From a virus (Duplodnaviria > Caudoviricetes): a stretch of 64,000 nt of DNA. Both the position numbers and the translations under genes were made by a program. The notes beneath the pieces are model-generated. The model searched no databases. It saw only the letters and a program-made list of their open reading frames with translations, and was not told the DNA's origin. Shown here piece by piece: positions 223-34,318 of this stretch (the stretch's first letter is position 1; each line of letters opens with the position of its first letter). The stretch lies in IMG/VR virus record IMGVR_UViG_3300025389_000011. The stretch is one strand, 5' to 3'.

Positions 223-1227
223 CTATTTGATAGGAACTAGGTTGTCTCTAAAGATTTCCCATGCACGTTTCCAAGACCAACGAAAACTACCTTTCAGTAC
301 TTGATTTCTGTCTAATTGTAAACAGCTATCAATAGCATGGGTTAGGTTCTCATTCATGAACCCCGTGACCCCTTGTTCAATTACATCCATAGGACCTTGA
401 CAAGGGTATGCCGCAACTGGCGTACCACACGCCATTGCCTCAATCATTACAATACCAAATGTTTCCCATTGGCTGGGGAATACAAATACATCAGCATTTG
501 CATAATAGACTGCCAAGTCTTTACCTGTTTTGAAACCAACAAAATTAACATCAGGATATTTTTTCTTGTACGTTTCTAACATAGGACCATCACCAACCAT
601 TGTTTTTCTTGCGCCCGGATAATCTAATTCAAAAAAGTCTTCTAAGTTTTTTTCTTTGCTAACACGTGCAACGCACAATAAATCAATTACACCCACTTCA
701 CTATACTCATGTCTTTGTTTAGTATTGAAAATTGTTCTATCAACCCCACGTGTCCATGGAATAACTTCACCGTCAAATCCATGCTTACGTAATTCAGCAA
801 CCATGCTGTCAGTCGTTGTTAAAACCTTGCCACTATGCTTATGAAACCAGCGTACAAAGCGCCAAGTAAGTGATTCAGGTATTCCAAATAGTTTGTTAAG
901 TCCTTCAGGGAATTTAGTATGATAAGCAGTATTGTGCCTAATACCACATTTTGCAAGATATGCTCTAGCCCACAAACCAAGAGGACCTTCTGTGGCGATG
1001 TGGATATGATCCGGATCAATCTTCGCAATCTTCTTGCCCATGTTCCTTGGATAGCTAAGTTTGACTTCGTTGTAGCCAGGACAATCAATATAGCTGAACC
1101 ACCTGGGGTCAATATAATCAATAGTATAACCATCCAGTATCGCAGGAGCCTCAAGATTTTTGTAAGTCGTGACAACGCCATTGATTTGATCCGGTAAATT
1201 ATCCGTTATTATCAGTATTTTCTTCAT
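223..1227 (-). CDS. GT4 (GT-B) glycosyltransferase, Agt/MgtA-like diacylglycerol glycosyltransferase
   Basis: TDNLPDQINGVVTT, IHIATEGPLG, AYHTKFPE, WTRGVD, ARVSKEKN, VGDGP, ADVFVFPSQWETFGIVMIEAMACGTPV are the motifs of the Agt/MgtA branch of GT4. Confidence 0.85.
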   Translation of the reverse strand: MKKILIITDNLPDQINGVVTTYKNLEAPAILDGYTIDYIDPRWFSYIDCPGYNEVKLSYPRNMGKKIAKIDPDHIHIATEGPLGLWARAYLAKCGIRHNTAYHTKFPEGLNKLFGIPESLTWRFVRWFHKHSGKVLTTTDSMVAELRKHGFDGEVIPWTRGVDRTIFNTKQRHEYSEVGVIDLLCVARVSKEKNLEDFFELDYPGARKTMVGDGPMLETYKKKYPDVNFVGFKTGKDLAVYYANADVFVFPSQWETFGIVMIEAMACGTPVAAYPCQGPMDVIEQGVTGFMNENLTHAIDSCLQLDRNQVLKGSFRWSWKRAWEIFRDNLVPIK

Positions 1228-4826: not shown

Positions 4827-4900
4827 GTTTTTAATTCCTTTTTAAAACGTTATTATAATTTTTATTATCTAAGATGTATGTGATTGTAGTCACAAAGATT

Positions 4901-4929
4901 GAAAGAAAGCCCACATATAAGTGGGCTTT
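4901..4929 (-). terminator. Rho-independent terminator closing the tmRNA transcript
   Basis: Stem AAAGCCCAC/GTGGGCTTT (4906-4929) with a 6-nt loop, followed by CTTTC on the minus strand. Confidence 0.8.
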
Positions 4930-5089
4930 GGTATTTTCTGTTTCGAGGTATATCCTACCCAATAGTGGCTTACGCCGCTAAAGAATAAACGCTATCGTTT
5001 GCATTTATAAGTTTTGCTTGATTTACGGTCATCGCCTACCGAGTTGTCCATTTACGTACTTATCACCCTGTCGAAACCAAGTCAGGCCC
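4930..5089 (-). ncRNA. ssrA: tmRNA coding piece (permuted two-piece ssrA); tag (A)ANDSVYSLAA at 5002-4970
   Basis: Starts GGGCCTGACTTGGTTTCGACAGGG (tmRNA 5' signature). pk1-like stem CGGT...ACCG. ATAAAT|GCA resume context. Tag ORF GCAAACGATAGCGTTTATTCTTTAGCGGCGTAA with its stop in a TAGCGGC-GTAA-GCCACTA hairpin. 3' end approximate. Confidence 0.93.
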
Positions 5090-5090
5090 A

Positions 5091-5213
5091 TCAAAAATTA
5101 TCATTCCATAGCTGTTCTAATTCAGGATCTACTGGGCCATGATCGGCAACAAGTGCCCATACATTTACTACTACCCAGATAATACCTATTGAATAAAACC
5201 AATGCCATTCCAT
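5091..5213 (-). CDS. 40-aa membrane peptide encoded in the tmRNA intervening segment (not in ORF track)
   Basis: MEWHWFYSIGIIWVVVNVWALVADHGPVDPELEQLWNDNF*. SD AAAGG directly after the CCA, 6 nt from the ATG; stop ends 1 nt before G1 of the coding piece. Confidence 0.7.
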   Translation of the reverse strand: MEWHWFYSIGIIWVVVNVWALVADHGPVDPELEQLWNDNF

Positions 5214-5224
5214 ATAATACCTTT

Positions 5225-5289
5225 TGGTGGACCTGGCGGGAGTCGAACCCGCGTCCAGAATGCCTTTCGGCTCACTTCATACAACAATA
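5225..5289 (-). ncRNA. ssrA: tmRNA acceptor piece (T-arm + CCA)
   Basis: ...GACGCGGGTTCGACTCCCGCCAGGTCC-A-CCA. CAGGTCC pairs with GGGCCTG (5089-5083) including the G3.U alanyl determinant. CATTCTG/CAGGGTG and GTTGT/ACAAC form helix 2 between the pieces. 5' end inferred from the promoter. Confidence 0.92.
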
Positions 5290-5295
5290 ACTCTC

Positions 5296-5324
5296 AGTAT
5301 ATATTTATTTGATAATACTGTCAA
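5296..5324 (-). promoter_or_regulatory. sigma70 promoter of the tmRNA, with an embedded late-type ATAAATA
   Basis: TTGACA (5324-5319), N17, TATACT (5301-5296); ATAAATA at 5308-5302 inside the spacer. Confidence 0.8.
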
Positions 5325-9118: not shown

Positions 9119-12100
9119 TTATAAATCAATACTTTGTTGATAAATGTTAAATAACCATTCCCAGTCGTAACTTAACATTAATTTTTGCAAGTCTCCGCCC
9201 ACTGAGTCATAGTAATCCATAGCATCATGTGCGCCTTTTTTGCTTTCTTCACCAAAATTACCGTTACCAATATTTAACCAAGCATGTAAACGTTCTTTAT
9301 TTTCATCAGTGCCACTATGTCTTAGTTTGATTGTTTCACGGAAAGCAGTACGCCAAGTGTCCCATGCGCTAGAATTATACATAGCGATACCACAGTTTAA
9401 TGGGACTACTTCGTGTTCACTATCCAATGTAAAGTCTAACCCTCTTACTTTGGTGTTAAGAGTTAATATTTTATTGTTAGCAACAATAGCTTGGTGACCA
9501 TATTCTAATCCATTTACGGGATTAGTTGCATTAAAGATATAGTGTTTTGGTATTTGTAACCTGTCAGGCTGCCAACTAAAATCAAATGTTTTATTCACTT
9601 TTAATTTTGCGTTAACTAAGAAATACCATGGTGTTGATGAGTTATACGCCGCAGTATGTTGACTAAGTACACGACCTTTAATATTGTCCAAACGTATTAC
9701 TTTATTACCTAAGTTTTTAGTAACACTTAACAAATGCTCATAATTTGCATCAGCACATGCTTCACCATTACTTAAAAAGATAATATCTAACGGATTAGAT
9801 TTTAATAACTTAGGTGACCTAGTGATATAAGGATAATCATATAACTCACGCTCAACATAATTTTTAGCCTCACTAGGGACTGTAATTCTAGTGCCGCCAG
9901 TACTTTTAATAACAATGTTTTTGTGGTCAGGTGCCCATAAACTTATAGGTTCATTTTCATCTTTTAGATTGATTAAGTTTTCATTATCACCTGTAATAAA
10001 CTCTGCATACGGAAATGTAAAGTCATAGTTAGACAACTCAACGTGGGTATCTTCTTTTACCAATATAACTGGAGCAGATAGTCGTTTAACACGTTGATGT
10101 TGATTGAAGTTAACTTTTTCATAATCCTCTAGTCTAATCATATCATTAACAAGACTTAAAAATTTATTAACATCTACTAAGAACGTATCACCAAACTTTT
10201 GCTTGTCGCTAGGGAACACATGCAGTTGATCCTTAGCATATGGATCGCAAATATAACTAAAATCAAAATCTTTATAGTCACAAATGCTACTGCAAATCCA
10301 AACATAATGTTCTTTTTTAGTTTCTAATGTCTTTAAATAGTTTTTAAGTGTCTGTAAGTAACTGTTATCAAACTTAATGATAGTTGTTGGCTTAAGAGTT
10401 TTTTCAACGATAGTGTCATTTACAGCCCTGAATTCTTTTTTAAAGTTTCCATGATTACCATGGTCTATTAACACAACATCATACAAACAATCAGTGGCTA
10501 CTGCTATTTTCTTTTTAACAAAATTCAATACATTCAAGTGTTCAATCACTTTTACATATTTTGTATCTTCAGGGAATGTTTCTTTGTTTACCATGAATGT
10601 AGTTCCCCAATGACTCCATTGAGTTCCAAATACATGCACCATTTTCATTTGCCATGGGCTAGGATAAAAGTCAAATTGAAAATCAGTATAGTCTAACTCG
10701 CTGTTCAATATCCAACATAAATTGGTTTCCGATTTAGTTAAACAACGAGTGATGGTGTCTACCCAGCTGTTTAAATAACGTGTTTTTTGAATTTGCGGAT
10801 ATCTTAATTTGAGTGCGTTATATCTGTTTGTTGACTCAAGATTACCCCTATCCACAAAGAACATACTTAAGTTACTATCAATTTCTACTGTTTGACTGTC
10901 AACGTAATTATATTCACGGTGACCTAACATGTACATAGGAGCGTTAACATAGTATGTCTGTGTGTTCATACTATATTCATTACCAAATACATTTATGTGT
11001 AGAAAGTTTTCTTCGTTAGGTCTCCAACTAAAGTCAAACTTATCGTAACTTAAGTCAGGATTGATAGCCCAAAACACCTCATCTTGATGCTCATTAATTA
11101 AATCCTCAAGTGTTGTTTTAATCTTGTAATGTTTTACAATACTACGTGTGATTTCTTCAGTACGTTTCATAAAAACAACTTCGGCATCTTTTAGTACGTC
11201 AGGGTCTGCGTATCTGGGTCCGTTATCTTCCCACTGATAAATTTGCAACGGGCTATGTGGATTGGGTCTCCAACTAAAATCAAACGTTTCTAAATCATCA
11301 TTGTTACTAATATGCCAATACTTTAAGTCTGGTCTTGGTGTAGCTACAATATCTTTAATGTACTTGAATTCTGTAGCACCCTCTACATAGTATTCTAATG
11401 TGGCTTCAACTGTGGCGTCATTCCATTTGTTTCCAAACACATAGATATAAGGAGGATCCATTGGATCAGGTCTCCAACTATAATCAAAACTTTCTACAGG
11501 AATTAATGTTTTCCATTTGCTCATGTCAGGCAACGTTGATGCTACTTTGTCATGCATGTATTTCTTTTCAGTAGCACCTGGGCAATGATACTCTACTGTT
11601 GGTTCAAATTCTGCGCTGTTAAACTTATTACCCCATACATAAATGAATGCTGGTTCACGTGGGTCAGGTCTCCACTTAAAGTCAAAACTATTTTTATTTA
11701 CTGGAATAAGAATATTCCATTTATCCCATTCAGGTTGCACATCAACTTCACCGATATACTTGCGTTCAGTAGCGCCCGGGCAATGATACTCTAATGTAGC
11801 CTGTAACTCAGCGTTGATATATTTGTTACCCCACACATAGATGTAATCAGGCTCACGTGGATCTGGTCTCCAACTAAAATCAAAATTTTCTACGTTTTGT
11901 AGTATCTTCCAATTTTCTATAATAGGCAATACTTCAGCAGGTTCTGCCATGTATTTCTTTTCAGTAGCACCGGGGCAACGATATTCTATTGTTGGTTGTA
12001 GTTCTCCAGCAATCCATTTGTTACCCCATACATAAATGTATGCTGGTTCTCTTGGATCAGGTCTCCAACTCATATCAAACTTGTTTCTGTCTACAGGTTG

Positions 12101-14431
12101 ATATTCTATCCAACGTTCATATTGAGGGACAACTTCAACATCGCCCATGTACTTGCGTTCACTTGCTCCTAGACAATGGTATTCTATTGTGGGCTGTAAT
12201 TCACCTGCAATCCATTTATTACCCCATACATAAATGTACGCTGGTTCTCTTGGGTCGGGACGCCATGTCATATCAAAGTCTACAGGTTCTTGATAAACAC
12301 GCCACAACTCTTGTTCAGGTAATACTTCAACATCACCCATATATTTGCGCTCAGTTGCGCCTGGATAATGATATTCTATTGTAGATTTTAATTCACCGGG
12401 TATCCATTTATTACCCCATACATAAATGTATGCTGGTTCACGTGGATCTGGGCGCCATGTCAAGTCAAATTTCTTTATATCAATTGCCTGAACCATTGTC
12501 CATCGTTCAAATTCAGGTACCACTTCTAATAGTTCTTCCATAAATTTGTATTCTGTTGCACCTTCAACAATATATTCAAGTGTGGGAATAATATTCCCTG
12601 GCACATGTTTGTTACCCCATACATAAATATAGGGAGGGCTTGTTGGATCCGGTCTCCATGTCATGTCAAATTTAGTTTTATCAACTTCTGAAGGATGTAG
12701 TTTCCAATTCTTACTAACAGCCAATTTAACATCTTGCGACATGTGTTTGATTTGTGTTGCACCTGGTACAATATATTCTACAGTGGGTTTTAATTCACTA
12801 CTATAATGTTTATTGCCCCATTGGTAAATGTATGGTTCTTCAGTTGCATCAGGATGCCAGCTATAATCAAAATCTAACACATCTTCATGTGTTACCCAAT
12901 TTTCTGTTGTTGATTGAGCAATTGCTTTAATCGTGTCAACATACTTGATAGGCGAATCCATAGTGCATCCAACAGCAGTAAAGATAGGTCCACCTGTTTT
13001 TTGATGCTGTGTACCAAACTGATATATCATTGGTTCATCTTGTATATCAGGATGCCAACTAAAATCAAAACCTTCTGTGATACAGCCTTCAGGTATTGCC
13101 CAATGATCCATATCAACTTTGGCAGTTGCTGTCTGTACATCAATATACTTAAACTCAGTTGCACCCTCTACAACAAAGCGTGGTCCACCTGAATGTTGCC
13201 ATTGACTTGGAAACTGATAGATATATGGATCTTCTGTTAAGTCTGGATGCCAACTAAAGTCAAACGTACTTCTATCAATGTTCATTGGAATTTGCCAATT
13301 TAAAAATTGATAGCAAACCACTAGTGATACCGGATTATCAACATATTTTAACTCAGTAGCACCTTCAATATAGTATTGTGGGCCATCTGTTTTTTGCCAT
13401 TGTGTTCCAAATTGATATACATAGGGAGGGTCATTGGGATTTGGTTCCCAACTATAATCAAAGCTACCTTCTGCAACGTGTACAGGTACTCGCCAATTAT
13501 CCATACAAGGTAAACGTATTGCACGTTCTTCCATGTACTTGATTTCTGTTGCGCCTTCTACAACATATCTAACACTTGCTTTATCTTCTGGCTTATTCCA
13601 TTGATTGCCCCATACATAAATGTAGGGAGGACTTGTTGGATCGGGTACCCAACTAAAATTAAATGCCAACTTATCAATATCTTCTAGTATTTCAAAATCT
13701 TCTGGTCTACGTACTAATTCAGGAGTAAAGTCATCAATATACTTACGTTCGGTGGCACCTTCTACATGAAACTCAATCGTTGGCATAATTGTGCCAGGGT
13801 ATTGATTGTTACCAAACACATAGATATAAGGAGGGCTAGTTGGATCAGGTACCCAACTAAAATCAAATTTAATAACTGGATGTATTATTTTAAATAGTCT
13901 TGGACTTTGTGCAAGTATTGCTATTTTGTCTATAACATATTTTCTATTGATAGCACCGGGTACATGATATTCTACCGTTGGCATGATAGCACCACTGTGC
14001 CATTGATTACCAAACACATAGATATAGGGAGGGTCACTGGGATCAGGATGCCACTTAAAATCAAACTGCTCTCTATCAATATTTTCTAGTATCTTCCAAT
14101 TTTTACTTATTTCTAATTCTTTGAATTGTAGAGGGTCTACATCAGCCCTGTAAACCATTAAATAATCACTACGATTAGGACACAACCATGTACCACTGTC
14201 TTTTTGATATTGACTGGGCCAGACATTAATATGATCTTGTGCCCATACATCTTCATCTGGTAATAACTCAAAATCAAAGTCCCAGTCAAAGTCACGATAA
14301 TCACACCGTTCGTTGATTATCCAAAAATGTTCTGTAGTGGCCTGTGATAATGCATCTTCAAATGAAGTTGCATGTTTTTCTCTAGGGTGGGCGTTTGGTT
14401 TTTCGCCATAGTAAAATACATCTCTTAGCAT
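9119..14431 (-). CDS. 1770-aa repeat protein with degenerate GT-A-like domains
   Basis: About 15 repeats FD(F/M)(S/T)WxPDPxxPxYIYVWGNKW...PGATExKY. The C-terminal domain aligns by eye with 36550-37503 (DIIFLS, H-x-AA, NGLxYG, WRxxFRExxK), but its DxD position reads NAK. Confidence 0.85.
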   Translation of the reverse strand: MLRDVFYYGEKPNAHPREKHATSFEDALSQATTEHFWIINERCDYRDFDWDFDFELLPDEDVWAQDHINVWPSQYQKDSGTWLCPNRSDYLMVYRADVDPLQFKELEISKNWKILENIDREQFDFKWHPDPSDPPYIYVFGNQWHSGAIMPTVEYHVPGAINRKYVIDKIAILAQSPRLFKIIHPVIKFDFSWVPDPTSPPYIYVFGNNQYPGTIMPTIEFHVEGATERKYIDDFTPELVRRPEDFEILEDIDKLAFNFSWVPDPTSPPYIYVWGNQWNKPEDKASVRYVVEGATEIKYMEERAIRLPCMDNWRVPVHVAEGSFDYSWEPNPNDPPYVYQFGTQWQKTDGPQYYIEGATELKYVDNPVSLVVCYQFLNWQIPMNIDRSTFDFSWHPDLTEDPYIYQFPSQWQHSGGPRFVVEGATEFKYIDVQTATAKVDMDHWAIPEGCITEGFDFSWHPDIQDEPMIYQFGTQHQKTGGPIFTAVGCTMDSPIKYVDTIKAIAQSTTENWVTHEDVLDFDYSWHPDATEEPYIYQWGNKHYSSELKPTVEYIVPGATQIKHMSQDVKLAVSKNWKLHPSEVDKTKFDMTWRPDPTSPPYIYVWGNKHVPGNIIPTLEYIVEGATEYKFMEELLEVVPEFERWTMVQAIDIKKFDLTWRPDPREPAYIYVWGNKWIPGELKSTIEYHYPGATERKYMGDVEVLPEQELWRVYQEPVDFDMTWRPDPREPAYIYVWGNKWIAGELQPTIEYHCLGASERKYMGDVEVVPQYERWIEYQPVDRNKFDMSWRPDPREPAYIYVWGNKWIAGELQPTIEYRCPGATEKKYMAEPAEVLPIIENWKILQNVENFDFSWRPDPREPDYIYVWGNKYINAELQATLEYHCPGATERKYIGEVDVQPEWDKWNILIPVNKNSFDFKWRPDPREPAFIYVWGNKFNSAEFEPTVEYHCPGATEKKYMHDKVASTLPDMSKWKTLIPVESFDYSWRPDPMDPPYIYVFGNKWNDATVEATLEYYVEGATEFKYIKDIVATPRPDLKYWHISNNDDLETFDFSWRPNPHSPLQIYQWEDNGPRYADPDVLKDAEVVFMKRTEEITRSIVKHYKIKTTLEDLINEHQDEVFWAINPDLSYDKFDFSWRPNEENFLHINVFGNEYSMNTQTYYVNAPMYMLGHREYNYVDSQTVEIDSNLSMFFVDRGNLESTNRYNALKLRYPQIQKTRYLNSWVDTITRCLTKSETNLCWILNSELDYTDFQFDFYPSPWQMKMVHVFGTQWSHWGTTFMVNKETFPEDTKYVKVIEHLNVLNFVKKKIAVATDCLYDVVLIDHGNHGNFKKEFRAVNDTIVEKTLKPTTIIKFDNSYLQTLKNYLKTLETKKEHYVWICSSICDYKDFDFSYICDPYAKDQLHVFPSDKQKFGDTFLVDVNKFLSLVNDMIRLEDYEKVNFNQHQRVKRLSAPVILVKEDTHVELSNYDFTFPYAEFITGDNENLINLKDENEPISLWAPDHKNIVIKSTGGTRITVPSEAKNYVERELYDYPYITRSPKLLKSNPLDIIFLSNGEACADANYEHLLSVTKNLGNKVIRLDNIKGRVLSQHTAAYNSSTPWYFLVNAKLKVNKTFDFSWQPDRLQIPKHYIFNATNPVNGLEYGHQAIVANNKILTLNTKVRGLDFTLDSEHEVVPLNCGIAMYNSSAWDTWRTAFRETIKLRHSGTDENKERLHAWLNIGNGNFGEESKKGAHDAMDYYDSVGGDLQKLMLSYDWEWLFNIYQQSIDL
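11200..14110 (-). repeat. About 15 tandem ~65-aa (~195-nt) W/D/P-rich coding repeats
   Basis: FDxxWxP(D/N) motif counted 15 times. The central copies (about 11600-12650) are near-identical in DNA (accccatacataaatgtatgctggttc). Confidence 0.9.
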
Positions 14432-16783: not shown

Positions 16784-16888
16784 TCATTTATAAATAAAAG
16801 GATCTCTTTTACGTAATTCTTTAATGCGTTTACGATAACGTAATTCCATTTTGATTTTATAGTATATATTTTTAATCCAACTAAACAT
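16784..16888 (-). CDS. 34-aa basic peptide (not in ORF track)
   Basis: MFSWIKNIYYKIKMELRYRKRIKELRKRDPFIYK*. Overlaps the stop of the upstream rSAM gene and fills the gap. Confidence 0.7.
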   Translation of the reverse strand: MFSWIKNIYYKIKMELRYRKRIKELRKRDPFIYK

Positions 16889-18155
16889 TTGTGTTCTCCT
16901 TGTTTATAGTGTCAATGATTTCTACAATGTCAGGGTAAATCTTTTTCCAATCTAGATTTCTTCTAACATCTAAATCATCTAAGAATCCATGTAAGTCGTT
17001 TACAGCTTTAACACTTACGGGAGTAGCCAACATTTGCTTTTTAATACCGGTTAATGAATTGATTTCCGGGCTATAATCTTTTTTATATTTATTAAGTGCT
17101 TCAATGGCTTTGTCTACATATGGCACCAAGTGCTTTCCAAAGTTATACGGGTTAAAGCAGTCAGGTCTAACCACTGTGTTCCAATTGAGGTTGGCAGTTT
17201 TATTTTTCAATATCCATTGACCACAGAACATGTCAATTAATTTATGCAATGCAGGTAATGTTACAGCAGTTAGTGTAGCATGTATTTGCAACACAACTCC
17301 CCAACTTTCTAACACGGTATTGATATTCTTTTCGCAATTTTCTAAGTTAAGACCATAACGTGCATACTCTAATTCTGGTCCCCAACAATCAATACTTGCA
17401 GTAATTTCAAAACGTTTTAATTTTTTAGCTTCTACTAATTTTTGAATTCTATTGATTTTTTCCTTGAACTTTTCAGGCTCATGATTTAGATTTGAAAAGA
17501 TACGCCAAATTAAATTTGGATTGTCATGTGTTTCAAAAAATTCTAAATGCTGTTCAAATTCTTTTTGATACATGGGCTCTCCACCCAATGTATTGTAAAT
17601 TACTAAATCTTTTGAGTTTTCATGCATCCATTCCCAGAATTGTTTTACATACTCATCATAGTTATCTCTGTCATCTGCTCTAAAGTTACTATAGTCATCA
17701 TTGAATTGGCTTTTACCATACTTACGTACTTCTTGTTCAATAACGCTACTAAAGCCGGGGGTACAATAAACGCATGATTGATTGCACACGTTGCTAAAGT
17801 ATACTTCCAACAGTCTAGGGTTTACGTTGATTTCTTTAGGGTTTGTTTCTAATTCATACGGAAGCAATTCAACTGATTTGTTTGCAAATCCAATTCTATC
17901 GCTTACCCCACCTGCTTGTTCAACATTGCGACAATATTCGCAACCGTTACCTGGCCATATACCTTCTAACATTTTTTCTCTATCACCTAATTTGCCCGGA
18001 TGATTATGAAAATCTTTTAGTGTATCTTTATTTAATTTCCAATGAAATCCACGATGGCAACTAGCAGTAGTTCCTCGATTTAAGAATAATGTGCTCCATG
18101 TCCATTTATATAGACATGCGGCATCGTTTACTATAGGGAATGTTTTTTTGTTCAT
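16881..18155 (-). CDS. Radical SAM protein, N-terminal twitch (CxxKW...SCH...CxxC type)
   Basis: CLYKW...SCH...CEYC, then CNQSCVYC and LGGEP. Confidence 0.9.
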   Translation of the reverse strand: MNKKTFPIVNDAACLYKWTWSTLFLNRGTTASCHRGFHWKLNKDTLKDFHNHPGKLGDREKMLEGIWPGNGCEYCRNVEQAGGVSDRIGFANKSVELLPYELETNPKEINVNPRLLEVYFSNVCNQSCVYCTPGFSSVIEQEVRKYGKSQFNDDYSNFRADDRDNYDEYVKQFWEWMHENSKDLVIYNTLGGEPMYQKEFEQHLEFFETHDNPNLIWRIFSNLNHEPEKFKEKINRIQKLVEAKKLKRFEITASIDCWGPELEYARYGLNLENCEKNINTVLESWGVVLQIHATLTAVTLPALHKLIDMFCGQWILKNKTANLNWNTVVRPDCFNPYNFGKHLVPYVDKAIEALNKYKKDYSPEINSLTGIKKQMLATPVSVKAVNDLHGFLDDLDVRRNLDWKKIYPDIVEIIDTINKENTNV

Positions 18156-18922
18156 ACTATATTTAAGGTTCTTTTAACCAATGGGAATAATTCTTGTCTG
18201 AAATACATTAAATGTCCGGCTTCATTAACATGATTGTCGATAAAATGATAATGGTTCCAATTGTGTTCAAAGTCCATACGCCCAGAAAAATCATACCTAG
18301 CTATATGTCTATATTGCAAATGTTTAAGTATTTCTAATTCTTTGAATTTAGTATTCATATCAGAATGTATTGTTTCGGGATTACACCATAAAAATTTTAT
18401 ATTTTTAGATGTTACAAACGAATAAGTTGCCAATGTTGACATTAAACTTTGATAATACATTATTGTGTCATTTGTAAGATATTTGTAAAACTGAACTCTT
18501 GCATTTCTATATTCATTATATGCGATTGGATATAATGGATTATTTATTTTATCCGGGTCATCGCCCCAAGCAGGGCACCACGGCACAATCATTTCAGGAT
18601 CTTTATACCCTGCTAAACTAAAACGATCCATGAATGTTCCATTAAATAACACCAATGCTATATCGTCATGTTGATTGATATAATCAACTGTGTCCTTGAA
18701 AATTCCAAATTGACTATTGCCCGGGCTTGCTAAATTAACTACATTATAATATGGTAACTGTTGATTTAATAATGTTGCCCAGCAGTATTCGCTAGAAGGG
18801 TCATTGGGATATTCAAAGGGTTTACCTAAATGAGTTTTTGTTTTCTCATCAAAATAATATATTCTATCCTTACAACCTTGACCATATGTATAGCTATCCC
18901 CTACTACTAATATTGTACTCAT
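18152..18922 (-). CDS. SGNH/GDSL-like protein
   Basis: VVGDSYTYGQG, NLASPGNS, DNHVNEAGH. Confidence 0.7.
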   Translation of the reverse strand: MSTILVVGDSYTYGQGCKDRIYYFDEKTKTHLGKPFEYPNDPSSEYCWATLLNQQLPYYNVVNLASPGNSQFGIFKDTVDYINQHDDIALVLFNGTFMDRFSLAGYKDPEMIVPWCPAWGDDPDKINNPLYPIAYNEYRNARVQFYKYLTNDTIMYYQSLMSTLATYSFVTSKNIKFLWCNPETIHSDMNTKFKELEILKHLQYRHIARYDFSGRMDFEHNWNHYHFIDNHVNEAGHLMYFRQELFPLVKRTLNIV

Positions 18923-19674
18923 TAACTAATTCCTAACTGTTTCATAAAGGGCATTATAACTCTATCAAAATAAATTTTATGTCCTGTGTCATTGCAATGT
19001 CCATCAGGCTGATAACATGTTTTATTAAATTCTTCATTTTCTCTTCCTGAAAAATCATACCTAAATATATGAGGGAAATAGTTAGGTACTAGTTTTGATA
19101 TTTTGTACTTTAGTTTAGAATAATCAACGCCAACCAGAGGCATAGACCAAGCAAATTGTGCGTTACATGCTTTGGCTACCCCATATATTCCCATGATACT
19201 GGTAAATGCATTTTGTAGACCAATACTATCATTATACAAGTATTTTGCATACATCATTTTTGCAGTACTATAATCTTTAGGATCATTGTCTCTGTAAAAA
19301 GAACCATCAAATTTGATAGACCAAGTTACTGGATCTTCTGGATTAAGATAGCTTGCCACTTCAATTCTGTCCATAAAAGCTCCGGCCGCTACAATTAAAT
19401 AGTCTGAATTTATATTGCTACTGGCATGTAGTGTCATTAAATCTCTAAACATTCCTGAATATGAATGTCCCGGTTTACTTGCATTTATTACCAATGCATT
19501 GTTAATATTGTTTTGTAACAAAGAACCCCAGCAATAATTGCTAGGTTTCAAGTGAAAGTCGGATGCCATACTTCCCACCCATACTTTCTTTTCAATATCA
19601 AAGTAATAATTTTTGTCTGAGCACCCATGTCCAAATGTAAAACTATCACCTAGCAGTATAATTCGTTTTATCAT
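18922..19674 (-). CDS. SGNH/GDSL-like protein (paralog of 18152-18922)
   Basis: LLGDSFTFGHGC, NASKPGHS, DGHCNDTGH. Shares GxGCxDxxYYFD and RYDFSGR with its neighbour. Confidence 0.7.
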   Translation of the reverse strand: MIKRIILLGDSFTFGHGCSDKNYYFDIEKKVWVGSMASDFHLKPSNYCWGSLLQNNINNALVINASKPGHSYSGMFRDLMTLHASSNINSDYLIVAAGAFMDRIEVASYLNPEDPVTWSIKFDGSFYRDNDPKDYSTAKMMYAKYLYNDSIGLQNAFTSIMGIYGVAKACNAQFAWSMPLVGVDYSKLKYKISKLVPNYFPHIFRYDFSGRENEEFNKTCYQPDGHCNDTGHKIYFDRVIMPFMKQLGIS

Positions 19675-19675
19675 T

Positions 19676-20428
19676 TCAATCTTTTTTGTCTAAATCTGTG
19701 GAGTATCTTTCGATAATTTCTTTGTTCTTGCAAGTAAGTTCAGGATTTTTATACAAGTCAATAATTTCAGGATATAGTTCCCAACACTCAGAAATTATTT
19801 TAGCAAAAATCATGTTTCTTTCTTTAGATAAATGACACCAACGATTGTCAACACGATTCATATTGGGCAATTCATTTCTACTTACTGATATTAAATTGTA
19901 TAAACATGGACCATGACGGTTATCTAAGTTGGTACTTAAATGTTTGTCTCTACGGTCTTCAAATGTTAACACATTTACTAATTTAATATTTTTGTTTCTG
20001 CATATATCATTTACATCATTGAAGATTTTTTGTTTTACCCAAACATCAAACTCAGTATCTATATTTATAGCACGACCAGTAAGAATTCTTACCATTTCAA
20101 GTTCTTGTTCAATTGTTAATTCTTTGTTTCTGCGTGTTTCATATAACTCATCGGGAGTGTTTAAGAAATGTAATCCTTCACAACCATGTGGCAAATGATG
20201 TATACGATGCAATGAAGAATGCATGAACACAATGTGGTCAAATTGGTCATGATGTGCTAAAAATTGCTGATATGCATACCACGTGCTGGTACCTGTTTTA
20301 CCATAAGTGGTTATCTTGTTTCCACCTTCTTCAATAAATCTAATCCAAGATTCGTCTTCCTTAAAGGGACTATCAGGATTGTGCGGAGCTCTATCCGCAA
20401 AACTATCTCCAAATACACCTATTCTCAT
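19676..20428 (-). CDS. SGNH/GDSL-like protein
   Basis: GVFGDSFA, YGKTGTS, RWCHLS. Confidence 0.6.
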   Translation of the reverse strand: MRIGVFGDSFADRAPHNPDSPFKEDESWIRFIEEGGNKITTYGKTGTSTWYAYQQFLAHHDQFDHIVFMHSSLHRIHHLPHGCEGLHFLNTPDELYETRRNKELTIEQELEMVRILTGRAINIDTEFDVWVKQKIFNDVNDICRNKNIKLVNVLTFEDRRDKHLSTNLDNRHGPCLYNLISVSRNELPNMNRVDNRWCHLSKERNMIFAKIISECWELYPEIIDLYKNPELTCKNKEIIERYSTDLDKKD

Positions 20429-20431
20429 ATA

Positions 20432-21628
20432 TCATCCTTTTTTGATTACTTTATTTACATATAACTTGTCCATGGCAGATTTTTTACCACATGTTTCTAA
20501 ACAGAATAACAATTTACCACCTTCAATAGTTGGTCTACTCCATCCATCTAAAAAGAATTTTTGAAAGTAAGGACCGTTTAATACTTCTACCATATTATAT
20601 ACTTTCAAATCAAATTTATCAAGCCCATATTCTCTAATCAATGTGTTAAACTGAAAACGTGAATATGAACTATGAAATTGACCAAATACTCCACCCAAGA
20701 AACAACAAGGTAACATATACCCATTGGCTGATATGTATACTTCACCATGTTCAGGGTGTTCAATTGATTTACACGCTATGCCATCATTTTCTAAACTTTT
20801 ACCAAACTCGCTAATAATAGGTATATGTCTATCTTGTGCAGTACTTAATACACCTTTACTAAAATCAACTTTGTAACCTAAAGGCGGAGTATAAACTTCT
20901 TCTTTAGAAAAACTAGCATTTGCAGGCCAAATACTGTACTCGAAATATCCTTCTTTGTCATAAACATTAATAGGAGTTGGTTTGTCATCGTATTCACCAA
21001 AACCTAAAGGATTTTTCATTGAGAATATAAATCCCAACTCTTTTGCCAACTTTTGTGCTTCTTCTACTTGATGTTTATTGTGGTCAAATAACAGCCATTC
21101 CCATATTGCTTTGGCCCCGGTAGCACTATATGCTCTCATGTTAGCAATAACTTTTTCCCACTTGACCCCTCTGCGATAAATGTGATTTGTGTCTTCTAGT
21201 CCATCAACACTAAACACAACACCCGGTTGGTTAAACAAGTGATTGTCCCAAAATTTGGGAGTACGGTTTTGTTGTTCCGCAAAAAACTCACCCATGCTAG
21301 TCCAAAACTCAGTATTACGCATACCACCATTGGTTCTTACTTGTTGTATAACTTTACTTGAATGCTCTGAAAAATATTTCATGATTGGTAACAAGTCAGG
21401 AGCCATTCCAGGATCTCCAACATTACCGCAATAATTAATTCCAATTAAGTTTTGTGCTATCTCTACCGGAACCATTCTTTTAATATCTTCAAGCGATAGT
21501 TCTGTAAGTTCTAAGTCTGGTACTACTGCACCACCAGAAAAATTTCTACTACATGCCGGGCAACTGGCATTGCATCTACTTGATAACTCAATGTGCAGTC
21601 TTGCCACTTTATGATACATCTTATCCAT
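20432..21628 (-). CDS. Radical SAM protein with C-terminal SPASM/twitch-like domain
   Basis: CNASCPAC near the N-terminus, CGNVGDP, C-terminal ACKS...YISANGYMLPCC...CLETC. Confidence 0.9.
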   Translation of the reverse strand: MDKMYHKVARLHIELSSRCNASCPACSRNFSGGAVVPDLELTELSLEDIKRMVPVEIAQNLIGINYCGNVGDPGMAPDLLPIMKYFSEHSSKVIQQVRTNGGMRNTEFWTSMGEFFAEQQNRTPKFWDNHLFNQPGVVFSVDGLEDTNHIYRRGVKWEKVIANMRAYSATGAKAIWEWLLFDHNKHQVEEAQKLAKELGFIFSMKNPLGFGEYDDKPTPINVYDKEGYFEYSIWPANASFSKEEVYTPPLGYKVDFSKGVLSTAQDRHIPIISEFGKSLENDGIACKSIEHPEHGEVYISANGYMLPCCFLGGVFGQFHSSYSRFQFNTLIREYGLDKFDLKVYNMVEVLNGPYFQKFFLDGWSRPTIEGGKLLFCLETCGKKSAMDKLYVNKVIKKG

Positions 21629-22881
21629 TATTTTTTTCCTATATATTTTGCTAAATTGTCCGGTTTATTTCTACGCTTAGTGTACTGTTCAAAAAAGATA
21701 TCACTATCAACACGCAATTGTTGTTGATTTTCTTTCACTAAACCACTATCTAACATAGTTAATAATCTGTTGCAATGTTCTTGTTCAACAGGTAACAAAT
21801 CATTACTAATACTATCGTAAAATTTTGTATACTTGTCAATATAAAAATCACGTTCTTGTCGTGTTAGGCAACCAAAACCTTGAAAGTCTGGCTTGTCAAC
21901 CATGTTAATTGATATATAAGGTTTTACTTTGGTACGCTTACGTATGTCAATAATATCCAAATACATTTGATCCAAACTCTGTAACGCAATTGCGCTTACT
22001 GTGGTGCTGATTGTAAATTCTTTAACTGTACTGTTACCTAGTCTTTCTACATTTTCTAACCATTCACTATATACCATACCCTCACGAATAAACTCCGCAG
22101 TTTCTCCTGCGCTTTCATTACTGATATTCATGCGTAAGTTTGTAAGTTTACTAATCTTGTCAAAAAATCTGTCCATAACAACGGGCTTTTGACATAAGTT
22201 ACTGTGTATCACGCATTCAATGTGTGGGTTCATTTGTGTCATCATTTCAAACACACGAAACACTTCTTCATGCATTAAGGGTTCGCCACCACTAACACGT
22301 ATGCTTTCTAGTCCATCTGCAACGGTAGTGAACCAATCCCAAAACAAATTCATATCGGGAGGGTCAATCATTTGTTGTATCTCAGCAATATCTTTTTGAT
22401 AATGTCTGCGGTCGTCAGTTGTAATGTCCTGATAGACTCCTTGATTTCTAATATCATTCATCCATGCTGTACTGAACTGCGGACTGCAATAGCTACATGC
22501 TAAGTTACATGTATTCTGAAATGCTAATTCTAATGCTTTGGGCTTGAATACGTAGTTAGGATTTTTATAATCATCTGCACTTAGATGGTCTTTGAAACTT
22601 AAACTTTTACGTGTTCTGTCACTACGCAAGCCTAAGTTTTCATAATGCCAACAGCTATTACATGCAGGAGGTTGTTCACCTGCTAACATACGCTTTTGTT
22701 GTTCACGTTTTTCAGCAGGATTATAAAATGTATCTACTGTGTTGCCCACTTGAATAAAGGGAGTATAATGACAACTTGCTATTTTACCCGAGTATACCCA
22801 AATACTTGCTTCATGGAACTTAGCCAAACACATTGTTGGACTGGTTTCATCACGTATCTTGAAAAGTTTTTTCTCATCCAT
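21628..22881 (-). CDS. N-twitch radical SAM protein
   Basis: CLAKF...SCH...CNSC; CNLACSYC; VSGGEP. Confidence 0.9.
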   Translation of the reverse strand: MDEKKLFKIRDETSPTMCLAKFHEASIWVYSGKIASCHYTPFIQVGNTVDTFYNPAEKREQQKRMLAGEQPPACNSCWHYENLGLRSDRTRKSLSFKDHLSADDYKNPNYVFKPKALELAFQNTCNLACSYCSPQFSTAWMNDIRNQGVYQDITTDDRRHYQKDIAEIQQMIDPPDMNLFWDWFTTVADGLESIRVSGGEPLMHEEVFRVFEMMTQMNPHIECVIHSNLCQKPVVMDRFFDKISKLTNLRMNISNESAGETAEFIREGMVYSEWLENVERLGNSTVKEFTISTTVSAIALQSLDQMYLDIIDIRKRTKVKPYISINMVDKPDFQGFGCLTRQERDFYIDKYTKFYDSISNDLLPVEQEHCNRLLTMLDSGLVKENQQQLRVDSDIFFEQYTKRRNKPDNLAKYIGKK

Positions 22882-24224
22882 TATAATACCTTGATTTTAT
22901 TGTACTGTTCTTTTTGCAATGTTACGTTTAAGTTGTTGTGTATAATATAATTTTTCATATTGATATGTTCTGGATAAACATCAAAAAAACTTTGACTGCG
23001 AATATCATCTAGTTTTGTTGTGATATGCCAAAAGTCTCTAAGACTTTCATCAATACCCGCATGGTATTTTGATGTATCCGACCACATAAATTTAATTGCA
23101 GTATCATACATACTTACCACATGTTCGCAGTTACCAAAAGTTTTTAGCCACTCAATGTTTTCATTTAGTTTGATTTCAATTTCACGCTTTTTCCAATCAG
23201 GAATATTCTTCAAACAATAATAGGGAGGAGTATCTAATGGATTAACCATGATTTTATCAGGTTGAATATATCCCAATTCAGTCCATTCTCTATGAAACTC
23301 TACCAAGTTAAATGCATTAGGCCAACTTAATGTATATGCTATACTAAAGTTAACGTGCGGAGTTTGTTCCATCATGCGTTTACGATTTTCTACAACTTGT
23401 TTCCAATCTGTGCCATTACGCCAGTATTCGGCTTTTTCATGACTGCCATCTAAACTTGCATATACATTTACGTCTTTGAACTTTTTCCAATACTCTAACA
23501 CATTATCAAAATTCTTTAACTTGAAATTAGTAAAGTTTGTGTTGTATCTGATAGTAATATCTGTGTTGCCAAACTCAATCAATTTATCTAAAATTTGATA
23601 GTGTTCTTTTTGCATCAATGGCTCACCACCTGCAAAGTAAATGCACTTAGCTGTTGCTAAGTGTGGTAATGTTTCTAAAAATGCTTGTTCTTCAGTTTTA
23701 CCTGGATATTGAAATCCATCGTCTTTGTCTCTGCGCTCAACCAAATTGTATAGTTTTCTATGGTCTAATATCCATCCAGTGCTATAGTGAGGGGCACAAC
23801 TACGGCAACTTAAATTACATAGGTTATTAAATCGTACATCAATGTAATACAATTTATGTTCATCTAATGAACCATCAGGGTTAGTACTTGCTACAATATC
23901 TTGTATGTCTTTGCTTTTTTCAAAAAACAATTTGTTGTATTCATTCTTGTGTGCGTAATCAATTTCCGCACGTTGGTTACATATGTGACAATTGGGTTCT
24001 TCAATGCCGTTTAAGAAATCTAAACGCATTTTTTTCATTTTGTCATTGTTCCATATTTCTTCTAATGTGTTTTCTTTAAGACTACCCACTTGTTCATTGT
24101 GGCTATACACACAGCAAGGTTTAACATCACCTGGTGGACCTACATATTGATGAATCCATGGAAAGATACAAAATGTTTTACTTGTTTTAGCTAATGCTAA
24201 TGGATCAAACGTTTGATTGGACAT
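22881..24224 (-). CDS. N-twitch radical SAM protein
   Basis: CIFPW...KPCC...CHIC; CNLSCRSC; FAGGEP. Confidence 0.9.
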   Translation of the reverse strand: MSNQTFDPLALAKTSKTFCIFPWIHQYVGPPGDVKPCCVYSHNEQVGSLKENTLEEIWNNDKMKKMRLDFLNGIEEPNCHICNQRAEIDYAHKNEYNKLFFEKSKDIQDIVASTNPDGSLDEHKLYYIDVRFNNLCNLSCRSCAPHYSTGWILDHRKLYNLVERRDKDDGFQYPGKTEEQAFLETLPHLATAKCIYFAGGEPLMQKEHYQILDKLIEFGNTDITIRYNTNFTNFKLKNFDNVLEYWKKFKDVNVYASLDGSHEKAEYWRNGTDWKQVVENRKRMMEQTPHVNFSIAYTLSWPNAFNLVEFHREWTELGYIQPDKIMVNPLDTPPYYCLKNIPDWKKREIEIKLNENIEWLKTFGNCEHVVSMYDTAIKFMWSDTSKYHAGIDESLRDFWHITTKLDDIRSQSFFDVYPEHINMKNYIIHNNLNVTLQKEQYNKIKVL

Positions 24225-25521
24225 AATTTGTTATTTTTTCATACATATAGGGAAATACATCGCTGAACTTTTCATTTCTAACATTATCTAATAGTTCAGT
24301 TTCGTGTAAGAATTTTTTCAACATTTCTTTATCACTTGGTTGACTATTCATTAATATGATAGCATTTTCCCAATGACTTATTGATTGGTCATATGTAAAA
24401 TTCTTTTCTTGTGTTTCTTCTAACCATTTTAAATGATTTTTAATTTTTTCTGTTACTTCTTGTTTAACATCAGGAGGCAATATATTGGTTCTGAAATGTT
24501 GTGGGTAATGTAATGTGTTCAAATAAAACCCAAACTTATCAAACAATTTATTCTCACACATGTATCTATGCAAATCAACTGCTTGGTAACAATTTAATAA
24601 ACTATATACTGCGGTGATGCCATAATCTTTATTAGGCAAATATTCTTTAGCGGTCTTGATCCATTCAAGTGCAACGTTCCAATCAAAACCTTTACGTATA
24701 TATTCACCTTCTGCGCCCATTGCATCAACACTACCCACAATAAACACATTGTCAAACTTCTGTAGTAACTCAAATGCATTATCGTCTTTAAGTGTATATG
24801 TTGTAAGATTGGTATTGTAACGTATCTTAACATCAGTTTTGTTTTTAGCAATCAATAATTTTAAGAAATCATAGTGGTCTTGTTGCAACATAACCTCACC
24901 ACCGCTAAAGTGTACTTCAGTATATGTATCAATGATATTAACCAGTTCTTCTAAATCTGTGTGTACATTTTCTGAATCATTGCTTAACAATCTTGAGTTT
25001 GTGGTAAAATGATGACGACCTAATTTAATTTCATCAGGAATCCAAGCTGTGCTACAACGTGTACCACAACTACGGCATTTCAAATTACACAAGTTATTAA
25101 AGATTAAATCAACTGTTGAGATTTTTAAATCATTATCAACTGTGCCATCTGTGTCACTATGCTTTAATATGTCTTCTAATTTGTTGGCATTGGTTTGACT
25201 TAATGCATCAGGGAATCGTGAATAGCGTTCATTAAATCTTTCACGCATACTAACAATACCACTATCCTCTTCGCTCCAACATTTAGTGCAAGGTTCAGGC
25301 TTTTTACCATCTAAAAAGTCCTTACGTAACTGATTCCATTTGTCATTGTGAAATGTATCAATCAATGTACTGTTGTTCCAATTGCCTAATACATTGTCTT
25401 TGGTATGTGCAGGATTATAATAACAGCATGGTGTTATCTCTCCGTCTGGTTCTGTATGTATTTGTAGCCAAGGTAGACTGCAAAATGTTTTTGGTAATTG
25501 TTCTACTGTTAAATTAATCAT
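24205..25521 (-). CDS. N-twitch radical SAM protein
   Basis: CSLPW...TPCC...CTKC; CNLKCRSC; FSGGEV. Confidence 0.9.
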   Translation of the reverse strand: MINLTVEQLPKTFCSLPWLQIHTEPDGEITPCCYYNPAHTKDNVLGNWNNSTLIDTFHNDKWNQLRKDFLDGKKPEPCTKCWSEEDSGIVSMRERFNERYSRFPDALSQTNANKLEDILKHSDTDGTVDNDLKISTVDLIFNNLCNLKCRSCGTRCSTAWIPDEIKLGRHHFTTNSRLLSNDSENVHTDLEELVNIIDTYTEVHFSGGEVMLQQDHYDFLKLLIAKNKTDVKIRYNTNLTTYTLKDDNAFELLQKFDNVFIVGSVDAMGAEGEYIRKGFDWNVALEWIKTAKEYLPNKDYGITAVYSLLNCYQAVDLHRYMCENKLFDKFGFYLNTLHYPQHFRTNILPPDVKQEVTEKIKNHLKWLEETQEKNFTYDQSISHWENAIILMNSQPSDKEMLKKFLHETELLDNVRNEKFSDVFPYMYEKITNYVQSNV

Positions 25522-26671
25522 GTTTTATAAATTCAATTATTTGGTTAAACGCATTTTGGTATGTTGTATTTCTTAAGATATCTATATTATTTAAAGTATC
25601 TATTGCTATATCAAATTTTCGTGTATCAAAATCTTTTGGCACAGAATAATCCATATGTTGTTTAAATATTTCTATACCACGTAGTATAGTTTTGTTGGTT
25701 ATGTTGGGATTTATACCATTAATAACATATTCACATATTTGTCGTTTGTTGTCAGAAGATAATATGTCAACAGAATAATAATTAGGACCAATTAATTTAG
25801 TTACCAATAAATCTGATAATTTTGGATAATCCGTACTTATCCAATTAATAAATTCTTTGAAATTACTAGAGTTCATCCATGACAATGTATAATTAAAACC
25901 AAAAGTCATGTTTGATGCATTGGTATAATATTGATAAAAATAATCAATTGTTTCTTTAGTTGATTGATAATTTGCACCAGACCTAATATATTCAAATACA
26001 TTATCTGTACCGTCTATACTTAATTGAATACCCACCATGCTGAATTTGTTTAGGTATTTTTGTATGTTTTCACATTTGGTTGTTCCATTGGTTGTGATAA
26101 CTATCACAGTATTCTTTGCATAAGGCTGTTCTGCTAACCAATCAATAAACTCTAGTACCATTGGGTTAATCAATGGTTCACCGCCTAACACTTCAAATCT
26201 AAATTCTTCAAAATCACGTTCTGCCAGTAATTGTTTAATAAAGTCAATTTTTTCAGGTGCCGGACTCTTTATTACTTTATTAAACCATTTTATATCTTTA
26301 CCTTCTATTTGTAGTTTTTCTGCGGCAATACGTGTGCTATTTTCAGGTATACATGTAATGCATTTTAAATTGCATAAGTTATCAAACGATGCAGTAACAA
26401 CCAATACTTTATCCGAACGTATGCTATCCTTAAAGGATGTTCTTAGACTCCATGGACCTGATTTCTCCATGTCAATACATCCTTTACAATTGGTTTCAAT
26501 ATCACACTCAGCTAATTGAGAATAAAAATCATTAGGTGTTTTAGCTTCAATGCTAGATTTGAACCAACAGCAAGGTTTATATACTTTTGCTGATTCAATC
26601 TGACTAGCATTGGCAATAAAAATCCATTGCTTATGTGCAGAGCATTCTTTATAAGGTGTTAAATCAATCAT
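25514..26671 (-). CDS. N-twitch radical SAM protein (short twitch)
   Basis: ECSA...KPCCWF...CKGC; CNLKCITC; LGGEP. Confidence 0.88.
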   Translation of the reverse strand: MIDLTPYKECSAHKQWIFIANASQIESAKVYKPCCWFKSSIEAKTPNDFYSQLAECDIETNCKGCIDMEKSGPWSLRTSFKDSIRSDKVLVVTASFDNLCNLKCITCIPENSTRIAAEKLQIEGKDIKWFNKVIKSPAPEKIDFIKQLLAERDFEEFRFEVLGGEPLINPMVLEFIDWLAEQPYAKNTVIVITTNGTTKCENIQKYLNKFSMVGIQLSIDGTDNVFEYIRSGANYQSTKETIDYFYQYYTNASNMTFGFNYTLSWMNSSNFKEFINWISTDYPKLSDLLVTKLIGPNYYSVDILSSDNKRQICEYVINGINPNITNKTILRGIEIFKQHMDYSVPKDFDTRKFDIAIDTLNNIDILRNTTYQNAFNQIIEFIKHD

Positions 26672-26672
26672 T

Positions 26673-34309: not shown

Positions 34310-34318
34310 GTGTTTTCC

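Follow-up and report, generated by a model that had tools for sequence, protein, structure and literature searches.

Results and discussion

A two-piece tmRNA gene with a filled spacer

The locus described here lies in a stretch of 64,000 nucleotides (hereafter the window) of the IMG/VR virus record IMGVR_UViG_3300025389_000011 (Duplodnaviria; Caudoviricetes), the minus strand of which carries a gene for a permuted, two-piece transfer-messenger RNA (tmRNA). In this gene, the 3' tRNA-like half (the acceptor piece) is transcribed before the 5' half (the coding piece), and the intervening segment (IVS) between the two halves, which would be discarded on maturation, is filled by an open reading frame (ORF) of 40 codons. 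The tmRNA had been recognized in a first-pass annotation made from the sequence alone, in which the protein-coding ORF filling the IVS was overlooked. What appears to be new at this locus is a small conserved gene for a predicted membrane protein nested in a tmRNA spacer, the class of the tmRNA itself being known. The features of the gene are collected in Table 1.

Table 1. Features of the tmRNA gene and of the ORF in its spacer (window positions)
Feature	Position	Strand	Sequence or length	Remarks
Promoter, sigma-70-type	5296..5324	-	TTGACA-17-TATACT	11/12 matches; aligns to the promoter part of RF01850
Acceptor piece (3' tRNA-like half, transcribed first)	5225..5286	-	~62 nt	ARAGORN, Rfam, direct reading; 5' end (~5286) predicted
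T-arm	5252-5236	-	GCGGG/UUCGACU/CCCGC	posterior probability '*' in both covariance models
3' acceptor strand	5235-5229	-	CAGGUCC	direct reading
Discriminator	5228	-	A
Encoded CCA	5227-5225	-	CCA
IVS	5090..5224	-	135 nt	predicted to be absent from mature RNA
IVS ORF	5091..5213	-	40 codons + UGA	AAGG 6 nt upstream of ATG at 5213; UGA at 5093-5091
Coding piece (5' half)	4904..5089	-	186 nt	160 nt without terminator hairpin
5' acceptor strand	5089-5083	-	GGGCCUG	G3 at 5087
Tag coding sequence	4970..5002	-	GCA AAC GAU...GCG GCG UAA	ANDSVYSLAA + stop; ARAGORN, direct reading
Intrinsic terminator	4897..4929	-	9-bp hairpin (4929-4906) + U-rich tract	aligns to the terminal hairpin of RF01850

ARAGORN reported a tmRNA at 4879-5317 (-) with the tag ANDSVYSLAA and labeled it as "Permuted", with gene positions 55-93 for the 3' domain and 229-255 for the 5' domain. 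In Rfam, the beta_tmRNA family (RF01850; curated cut-off, 84 bits) was matched at 5338-4904 (-) over the full model, 1-331, with 134.4 bits and an E value of 8e-41; tmRNA_permuted (RF04321; curated cut-off, 47 bits) also matched with 138.8 bits. RF01850 won the clan competition for the window tmRNA, and the alpha-type phage genes of Melnitz and of another viral locus (L325) were called RF01849 by the same tool. The check by Infernal and ARAGORN that had been proposed thus agrees with the first-pass annotation on a permuted two-piece tmRNA at this place; corrections are due in its strand and exact borders, and the range given there, 4930-5289, covers the core of the gene but leaves out the promoter and the terminator.

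Direct reading bears out the acceptor stem GGGCCTG/CAGGTCC with G3.U, the discriminator A and the CCA as first described, and all seven pairs of the stem, G3.U included, form between GGGCCUG and CAGGUCC. The tag that had been read, ANDSVYSLAA, is likewise the one obtained from ARAGORN and from positions 5002-4970; its frame resumes on the Ala codon GCA and ends in LAA before the stop codon. Helix 2 is shared between the halves, its 5' strands being carried by the acceptor piece and its 3' strands by the coding piece, in which GGGCCUG comes before them and a hairpin, then the tag frame, then a small hairpin and finally the terminator come after them. The earlier estimate of ~160 nt for the coding piece is correct when the terminator hairpin is left out and too short when it is counted. 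The two tmRNA halves are preceded by a single promoter and followed by a single terminator. The -10 hexamer ends ~7 nt ahead of the first modeled base, and a similar promoter site was found in 35/94 viral relatives, mostly at the same distance, against a background of 15%. The tail of the terminator on the minus strand reads CUUUCAAUCUU; its palindromic hairpin had been reported on the plus strand. The long-range helices of the tmRNA were missed when the 391-nt precursor was folded by minimum free energy, and this fold was set aside.

Class of the tmRNA

Judged from its sequence, the window gene belongs, over its full length, to the two-piece class known from betaproteobacteria. The alignment extends from one end of RF01850 to the other and takes in the promoter, helix 2, the hairpin following helix 2, the tag and both terminal hairpins. 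Just 66 nt follow the stop codon of the tag; in the model they fall on the two terminal hairpins, with an imperfect alignment at the first. A compact structure without the pseudoknots pk2-pk4 had been pointed out in the first-pass annotation; only hairpins do follow the tag, but this is standard for the class and nothing special, given that RF01850 spans 278-351 nt in 43/44 Rhodocyclaceae-family genes and 422 nt in the remaining one.

It had also been suggested that the permutation arose independently, that is, by a phage-specific circular permutation of a one-piece tmRNA. In favor of such an origin, the stem GGGCCUG/CAGGUCC is common in viral copies and absent from the sample of 19 bacterial beta-type genes, and the Rfam score is below those of the bacterial members. 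Against it stand the end-to-end alignment to RF01850 as well as the break point, which is the same in the beta-type genes of Accumulibacter, Rhodocyclaceae and Thauera as in the window gene. The Thauera-type IVS, furthermore, starts with GAAG... and ends with ...CUUCUGAU, and its closing helix and tail are common to the viral genes, which form a continuum of about 100 relatives with the beta class. An independent permutation is hence very improbable, and the gene is better regarded as a divergent copy of the betaproteobacterial type.

Nor is a two-piece tmRNA in a phage a novelty, since such genes have been published (PMC9004378) and are annotated in GenBank for Stenotrophomonas phages. Phage two-piece tmRNAs are very common in viral contigs; in one pattern scan of such contigs, 99/110 tmRNAs among the matches listed were permuted. 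The phage tmRNA itself is ordinary cargo, namely one more copy of a known class.

The spacer as a clamped loop

In the window gene, the first 12 nt of the IVS pair with the 12 nt preceding a UGAU tail (10/12 pairs), and this tail, UGA-U, stands directly 5' of G1. The ORF starts 11 nt past CCA, and its stop codon is the UGA of the tail, so that a single U separates it from G1. We then surveyed 94 unique viral IVSs taken without selection. Positions -4 to -2 are a stop codon (UGA or UAA) in 88/94 and position -1 is a U in 89/94, and this near-invariant stop + U before G1 is present with or without an ORF in the IVS. The closing helix is paired in 936/1044 cells (90%) across 87 unique viral IVSs, compared with 40-56% in slid registers, and 4-6 pair types occur at each of its positions, i.e., the two strands covary. 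Because the terminal stop is near-invariant irrespective of an ORF and the ends are paired, the IVS is a clamped loop whose tail gives a stop codon for free. As candidate reasons for the invariant stop, we note a preference of RNase P for the leader or a stop that keeps ribosomes off the tRNA-like domain.

An ORF under selection in the spacer

Among the 17 viral IVSs of at least 120 nt, 10 contain an ATG-started ORF that is open to the terminal stop. When the interiors of the IVSs were shuffled, such ORFs numbered 0.43 on average with a maximum of 4 in 500 shuffles, and the other frames gave 0-1; open ORFs are hence ~20 times more frequent in long IVSs than in shuffles. Shine-Dalgarno (SD)-like 4-mers were found in 11/16 ORF-bearing IVSs versus 10/75 ORF-less ones. 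IVSs shorter than 80 nt showed no excess of open frames.

Relatives of the window ORF were collected in viral contigs, where an exact degenerate DNA pattern for its N-terminus hit nothing and a looser pattern detected three homologues; this looser scan is biased towards ATG and was used only for collecting relatives, not for the ORF frequencies above. All three homologues lie in IVSs (those of the loci L443, L436 and L377), and the tmRNAs around them differ from the window tmRNA in the acceptor stem or the tag. In the frame of the ORF, the ratio of nonsynonymous to synonymous substitution rates (dN/dS) was 0.26, 0.24 and 0.20 for three pairs, with substitutions favoring the third codon positions, and reading the same alignments in either shifted frame gave at least 1.5 where computable. 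A second family of IVS ORFs, with a product of 62 aa, gave dN/dS of 0.13-0.24 in ten pairs. Furthermore, at least 20 metagenome contigs have a called gene for the identical 40-aa protein, with two different upstream contexts.

For the IVS peptide, AlphaFold was run with an alignment of five rows; in the predicted structure (mean pLDDT, 83), a short linker joins a hydrophobic helix at residues 4-23 to an acidic one at 30-39. The best 19-residue hydropathy window is 1.89 and the net charge of the tail -5, and the helix-linker-helix plan is kept in the peptide family across 53-38% identity. The model thus fits a small single-pass membrane peptide. The spacer peptides had no matches in Pfam or PHROGs and nothing usable in the ESM Atlas, and a tblastn search of cultured phages with the IVS ORF gave no real match.

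An alternative reading is that the spacer ORF is untranslated, being open by chance or conserved only for the folding or processing of the spacer RNA. Since the terminal stop is there with or without an ORF, an RNA motif would supply it at no cost; the closing helix has a purine-rich 5' strand that is SD-like by itself, the SD motif and the last codons are base-paired, and the lack of excess in short IVSs and of Pfam or PHROGs matches also sits well with this reading. It does not, however, account for the preference for third positions in the ORF frame but not in the shifted ones, the frequency of ORFs in long IVSs, the enrichment of SD motifs only in ORF-bearing IVSs, and the peptide plan that is retained among diverged homologues. 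We therefore regard an untranslated ORF as unlikely. The IVS ORF appears to be a real protein gene, and we infer its translation, which would need opening of the closing helix that hides the SD motif.

Exchange of spacers between phages

The IVS of the window gene is 94% identical to that of L443, while the flanking tmRNA parts of the two genes are only 61-63% identical. The opposite is seen with the syntenic locus L137, where the acceptor piece is 84% identical and the IVS 24%; the two IVSs are unrelated and encode different peptides. In a near-complete relative (G275), the IVS measures 273 nt and contains an ORF of 83 codons. From these comparisons, spacers have evidently been swapped between phages as cassettes, and the conserved tRNA-like flanks are likely to act as homology arms for the exchange.

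As a control for the spacers, we used a family-level search of bacteria (44 genes), a class-level search being of no use for this purpose with a beta-type gene in 1/151 genomes; among the latter was one unpublished genome (G042) that gave just a sub-threshold match, on which nothing is based here. Bacterial beta-type IVSs are 3-4 or 36-38 nt long and contain no ORF (19 genes). In the beta-type copies of cultured Stenotrophomonas and Xanthomonas phages, the IVS measures 56-127 nt and is not filled by an ORF.

Several observations were made on tmRNA genes outside the window. Among the 44 bacterial beta-type tmRNAs sampled, a lone long-spacer gene (L458; bacterial genome G224, contig 10, 56270-56691) has an IVS of 103 nt with a closing helix and an internal hairpin and no ORF; it comes from a small genome of 1.8 Mb, and the 8.4-kb locus has ~40% GC. 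In the Methylophilales phage Melnitz (MZ577097.1 45780-46436, L448), gene 85 directly upstream of ssrA encodes a hypothetical protein 59% identical to the 62-aa IVS-family protein, and the phage's own 142-nt IVS contains a different, unannotated frame with SD and ATG that reads into the coding piece. A match to tmRNA that is left without annotation, or overlaid by a "hypothetical protein" or "tRNA-OTHER" entry, was seen in the GenBank phages Mendera, Moby, IME-SM1, YB07, BUCT608, X1, DLP_6, BUDD, JGB6 and QDWS359. ARAGORN and Rfam confirm a beta-type permuted tmRNA in Bhz51, BUDD and QDWS359, of which the copy of Bhz51 is annotated as ssrA and those of BUDD and QDWS359 only as "hypothetical protein"; the remaining cultured phage matches are probably unannotated tmRNA copies as well. 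Also, many viral permuted tmRNAs (L017, L022, L032, L037, L051, L055, L059, L060, L065, L071, L081, L107, L108 and L113) have tags of 28-31 residues, ~3 times the usual length, which share a core (ANADTFDFSAMSFTGN...) and end in ALAA.

Phage context of the gene

The source record is an IMG/VR entry of 103,401 bp with a CheckV completeness of 29%, inside which the window lies. It encodes a portal protein, a major head protein, a large terminase (TerL), a gp55-like late sigma factor and SbcCD, and the tmRNA is accordingly carried by a phage, as was first proposed. TerL is ~50% identical to the terminases of PA5oct-type jumbo phages. Relatives of the gene directly upstream of the tmRNA occur on more than 550 viral contigs; because some of these contigs are 330-340 kb long, the record would represent part of a T4-like jumbo phage with a genome of roughly 350 kb. 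A megablast search of cultured phages with 9.6 kb of the flanking DNA gave no match.

That the tmRNA might be host DNA, i.e., a prophage border or an assembly chimera, is a concern because tmRNA genes are frequent integration sites and because in some short viral contigs the match is at the contig end. The gene is, however, in the middle of the contig, ~5 kb inside the window with the record running 13.9 kb beyond that window edge; the ORFs around it share its strand, phage hallmark genes flank the window on both sides, and no integrase was seen near it. Moreover, several samples yielded independent contigs, at least 20 in all, with the same gene order around the tmRNA. A host origin of this DNA is scarcely credible, and we take the tmRNA as a phage gene in what follows.

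Among 80 related loci, a tmRNA is within 4 kb of the upstream gene in four, and L137 alone has it at the same spot. Permuted tmRNAs scored above the cut-off in 2/3 relatives of 95-97% completeness, at other genome positions. Because it is rare at this locus and present elsewhere in two of the three near-complete relatives, the tmRNA in this phage group is common yet mobile and dispensable.

The window was originally described as having no smpB, and indeed neither the window, nor the 103-kb record as a whole, nor any of five related records, of which three are 95-97% complete, gave a match to SmpB (PF01668). The proposal that the phage tmRNA works with the SmpB of the host is likely to be right, because phage SmpB was not found in the record or the relatives, which supports this partnership without proving it. 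Neither the record nor the five relatives matched RNase P RNA (RF00010).

Other genes of the window deserve a brief description. The ORFs at 1300-2184 and 223-1227 (-), a few kb downstream of the tmRNA, encode an ATP-grasp enzyme of the RimK type (PF08443, E 1e-45) and a GT4 glycosyltransferase. Radical SAM enzymes of ~380-520 aa each form a tandem array at 16881-35884 (-), in which 9/10 ORFs tested matched PF04055 and 3 additionally have a SPASM domain; the array is bordered by a carbamoyltransferase gene on one side and further ORFs on the other. A single ORF of 6337 codons spans 42813-61826 (-), with a Pfam match in neither half, and an ORF of 1770 codons at 9119-14431 has no match in Pfam or PHROGs.

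Proposed function

Taken together, we consider it probable that the locus encodes a working beta-class two-piece tmRNA as a phage accessory gene, that its spacer holds a real membrane-peptide gene, and that such spacers are exchanged as cassettes. By analogy with established tmRNA biology, a single precursor would be made from the gene's own sigma-70-type promoter and comprise the acceptor piece, the 135-nt spacer, the coding piece and the terminator, the two halves being paired via the 7-bp acceptor stem and helix 2. RNase P of the host would cut 5' of G1, nucleases of the host would trim back to the encoded CCA, and alanyl-tRNA synthetase (AlaRS) of the host would charge the RNA through G3.U and the discriminator A. 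Together with host SmpB, the charged RNA could rescue stalled ribosomes and add ANDSVYSLAA as a ClpXP-type degradation tag; the likely benefit would be the freeing of ribosomes during the degradation of messages in infection. The ribosome-binding site and the last codons of the IVS gene would be inside the closing helix, with the conserved UGA beside the RNase P site as the stop codon. Because the spacer carries what appears to be a real gene of 40 codons, the precursor or the released spacer may double as the messenger for the membrane peptide.

There are points that weigh against this proposal. The middle of helix 2 is poorly paired compared with the RF01850 model, where non-standard pairs are flagged, and the score of 134 bits is well below the 160-331 bits of bacterial RF01850 members. 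No tmRNA is present at this position in 76/80 related loci, and the gene is therefore dispensable. The compatibility of the RNA with SmpB, AlaRS and RNase P of the host is assumed. The IVS ORF is short, and its SD motif (AAGG) is weak and sequestered in the closing helix; the last four codons are also under constraint from the RNA structure, and the estimate of selection on this ORF rests on only four homologues with few contrasts.

Instead of a rescue factor, the RNA might act as a decoy, titrating the SmpB of the host, or as a re-tagging device by which tagged proteins are redirected. There is a precedent in the mycobacteriophage DS6A, where a molecule consisting only of a tRNA-like domain inhibits tmRNA (PMC4131195). 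With no phage SmpB found, the phage RNA would have to compete with the host tmRNA for SmpB, and the 28-31-residue tags in many viral relatives suggest functional divergence of phage tags. The window copy, however, has a complete and canonical 10-residue tag with the LAA end and the GCA resume codon, possesses all of the tRNA-like identity elements, and keeps a full-length architecture beyond the tRNA-like domain alone. A decoy thus seems distinctly improbable, and ribosome rescue is the role we prefer for this tmRNA.

If RNase P cuts at G1, the spacer message would end a single base past its stop codon, and this arrangement invites a link between maturation of the tmRNA and the peptide. The spacer might become a non-stop message, and its membrane peptide might then be tagged by the very tmRNA from which the spacer came. 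The closing helix would keep the ribosome-binding site shut in the precursor, trimming at the 3' end would remove the stop codon and open the helix, and this would be what the conserved UGA at -4 to -2 is for. If true, the rescue system of the phage would have a built-in first substrate or timer, but we find such coupling quite unlikely.

The presence of a gene in this position suggests that a spacer of stable-RNA maturation, which has been held as waste, is used by phages as an exchangeable slot for small genes that is both compact and strongly transcribed; many of these genes seem to encode membrane peptides. One transcript would then serve as both the precursor of a stable RNA and a messenger, which opens the question of how translation and tRNA-type processing share one RNA. 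In terms of annotation, furthermore, small phage proteins of this kind would be masked by pipelines once the tmRNA is called.

Comparison with known systems

Two-piece tmRNA of betaproteobacteria was reportedly described by Sharkady and Williams in 2004. The window gene shares with this tmRNA the order of acceptor piece, spacer and coding piece, G3.U, the discriminator A, CCA, a tag of the ANDxxxxLAA type and hairpins only after the tag, and with its Thauera-type representatives also a helix-closed spacer ending in UGAU. It differs in being phage-borne and divergent and in having a coding spacer of 135 nt, whereas the bacterial spacers are 3-38 nt long (one of 103 nt, with no ORF).

In hok-type type I toxin mRNAs, the 5' and 3' ends fold back on each other and hide the ribosome-binding site of a gene for a small hydrophobic peptide, and 3' trimming could alter translatability. 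The resemblance to the window spacer is one of layout alone, i.e., a hydrophobic helix and paired RNA ends, and the window ORF is not assigned to this family.

As for phages, 53/133 unique phage tmRNAs were reported to be two-piece, with Melnitz and pelagimyophages as examples (PMC9004378), and further copies are in GenBank for Stenotrophomonas phages (Menderavirus and Bosavirus) and the Xanthomonas phage BUDD. Like the window gene, these copies are permuted ssrA genes without a phage smpB in large aquatic or T4-like myophages and are common but not universal in their group. The gene of Melnitz is different in being alpha-type, and the Stenotrophomonas and Xanthomonas copies are beta-type but have no ORF filling the spacer. 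A spacer gene is not mentioned for phage two-piece tmRNAs in PMC9004378, and no description of protein genes inside tmRNA spacers was found in the literature searched.

Extra cargo in tmRNA genes is known in the form of group I introns in the T-loop, some with homing-endonuclease genes, and a tRNA-Ala gene in one permuted spacer (PMC11915505); the only spacer contents mentioned in the 2025 tmRNA database paper are a tRNA gene and a repetitive element. In these cases, as in the window gene, the cargo is tolerated and removed on maturation. The introns are self-splicing, however, and the tRNA insert is a stable RNA, while the window spacer carries a small protein gene and would be removed by normal tRNA-type processing.

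The nearest analogue is the intervening sequence in the 23S rRNA of Coxiella burnetii, which carries the S23p ORF, reported as probably not expressed (PMC4990558). In both systems, an ORF is located in a helix-closed spacer that is excised from the precursor of a stable RNA. The RNA that hosts the spacer is an rRNA in Coxiella, whereas the tmRNA slot represented by the window gene holds several unrelated families of ORFs under purifying selection.

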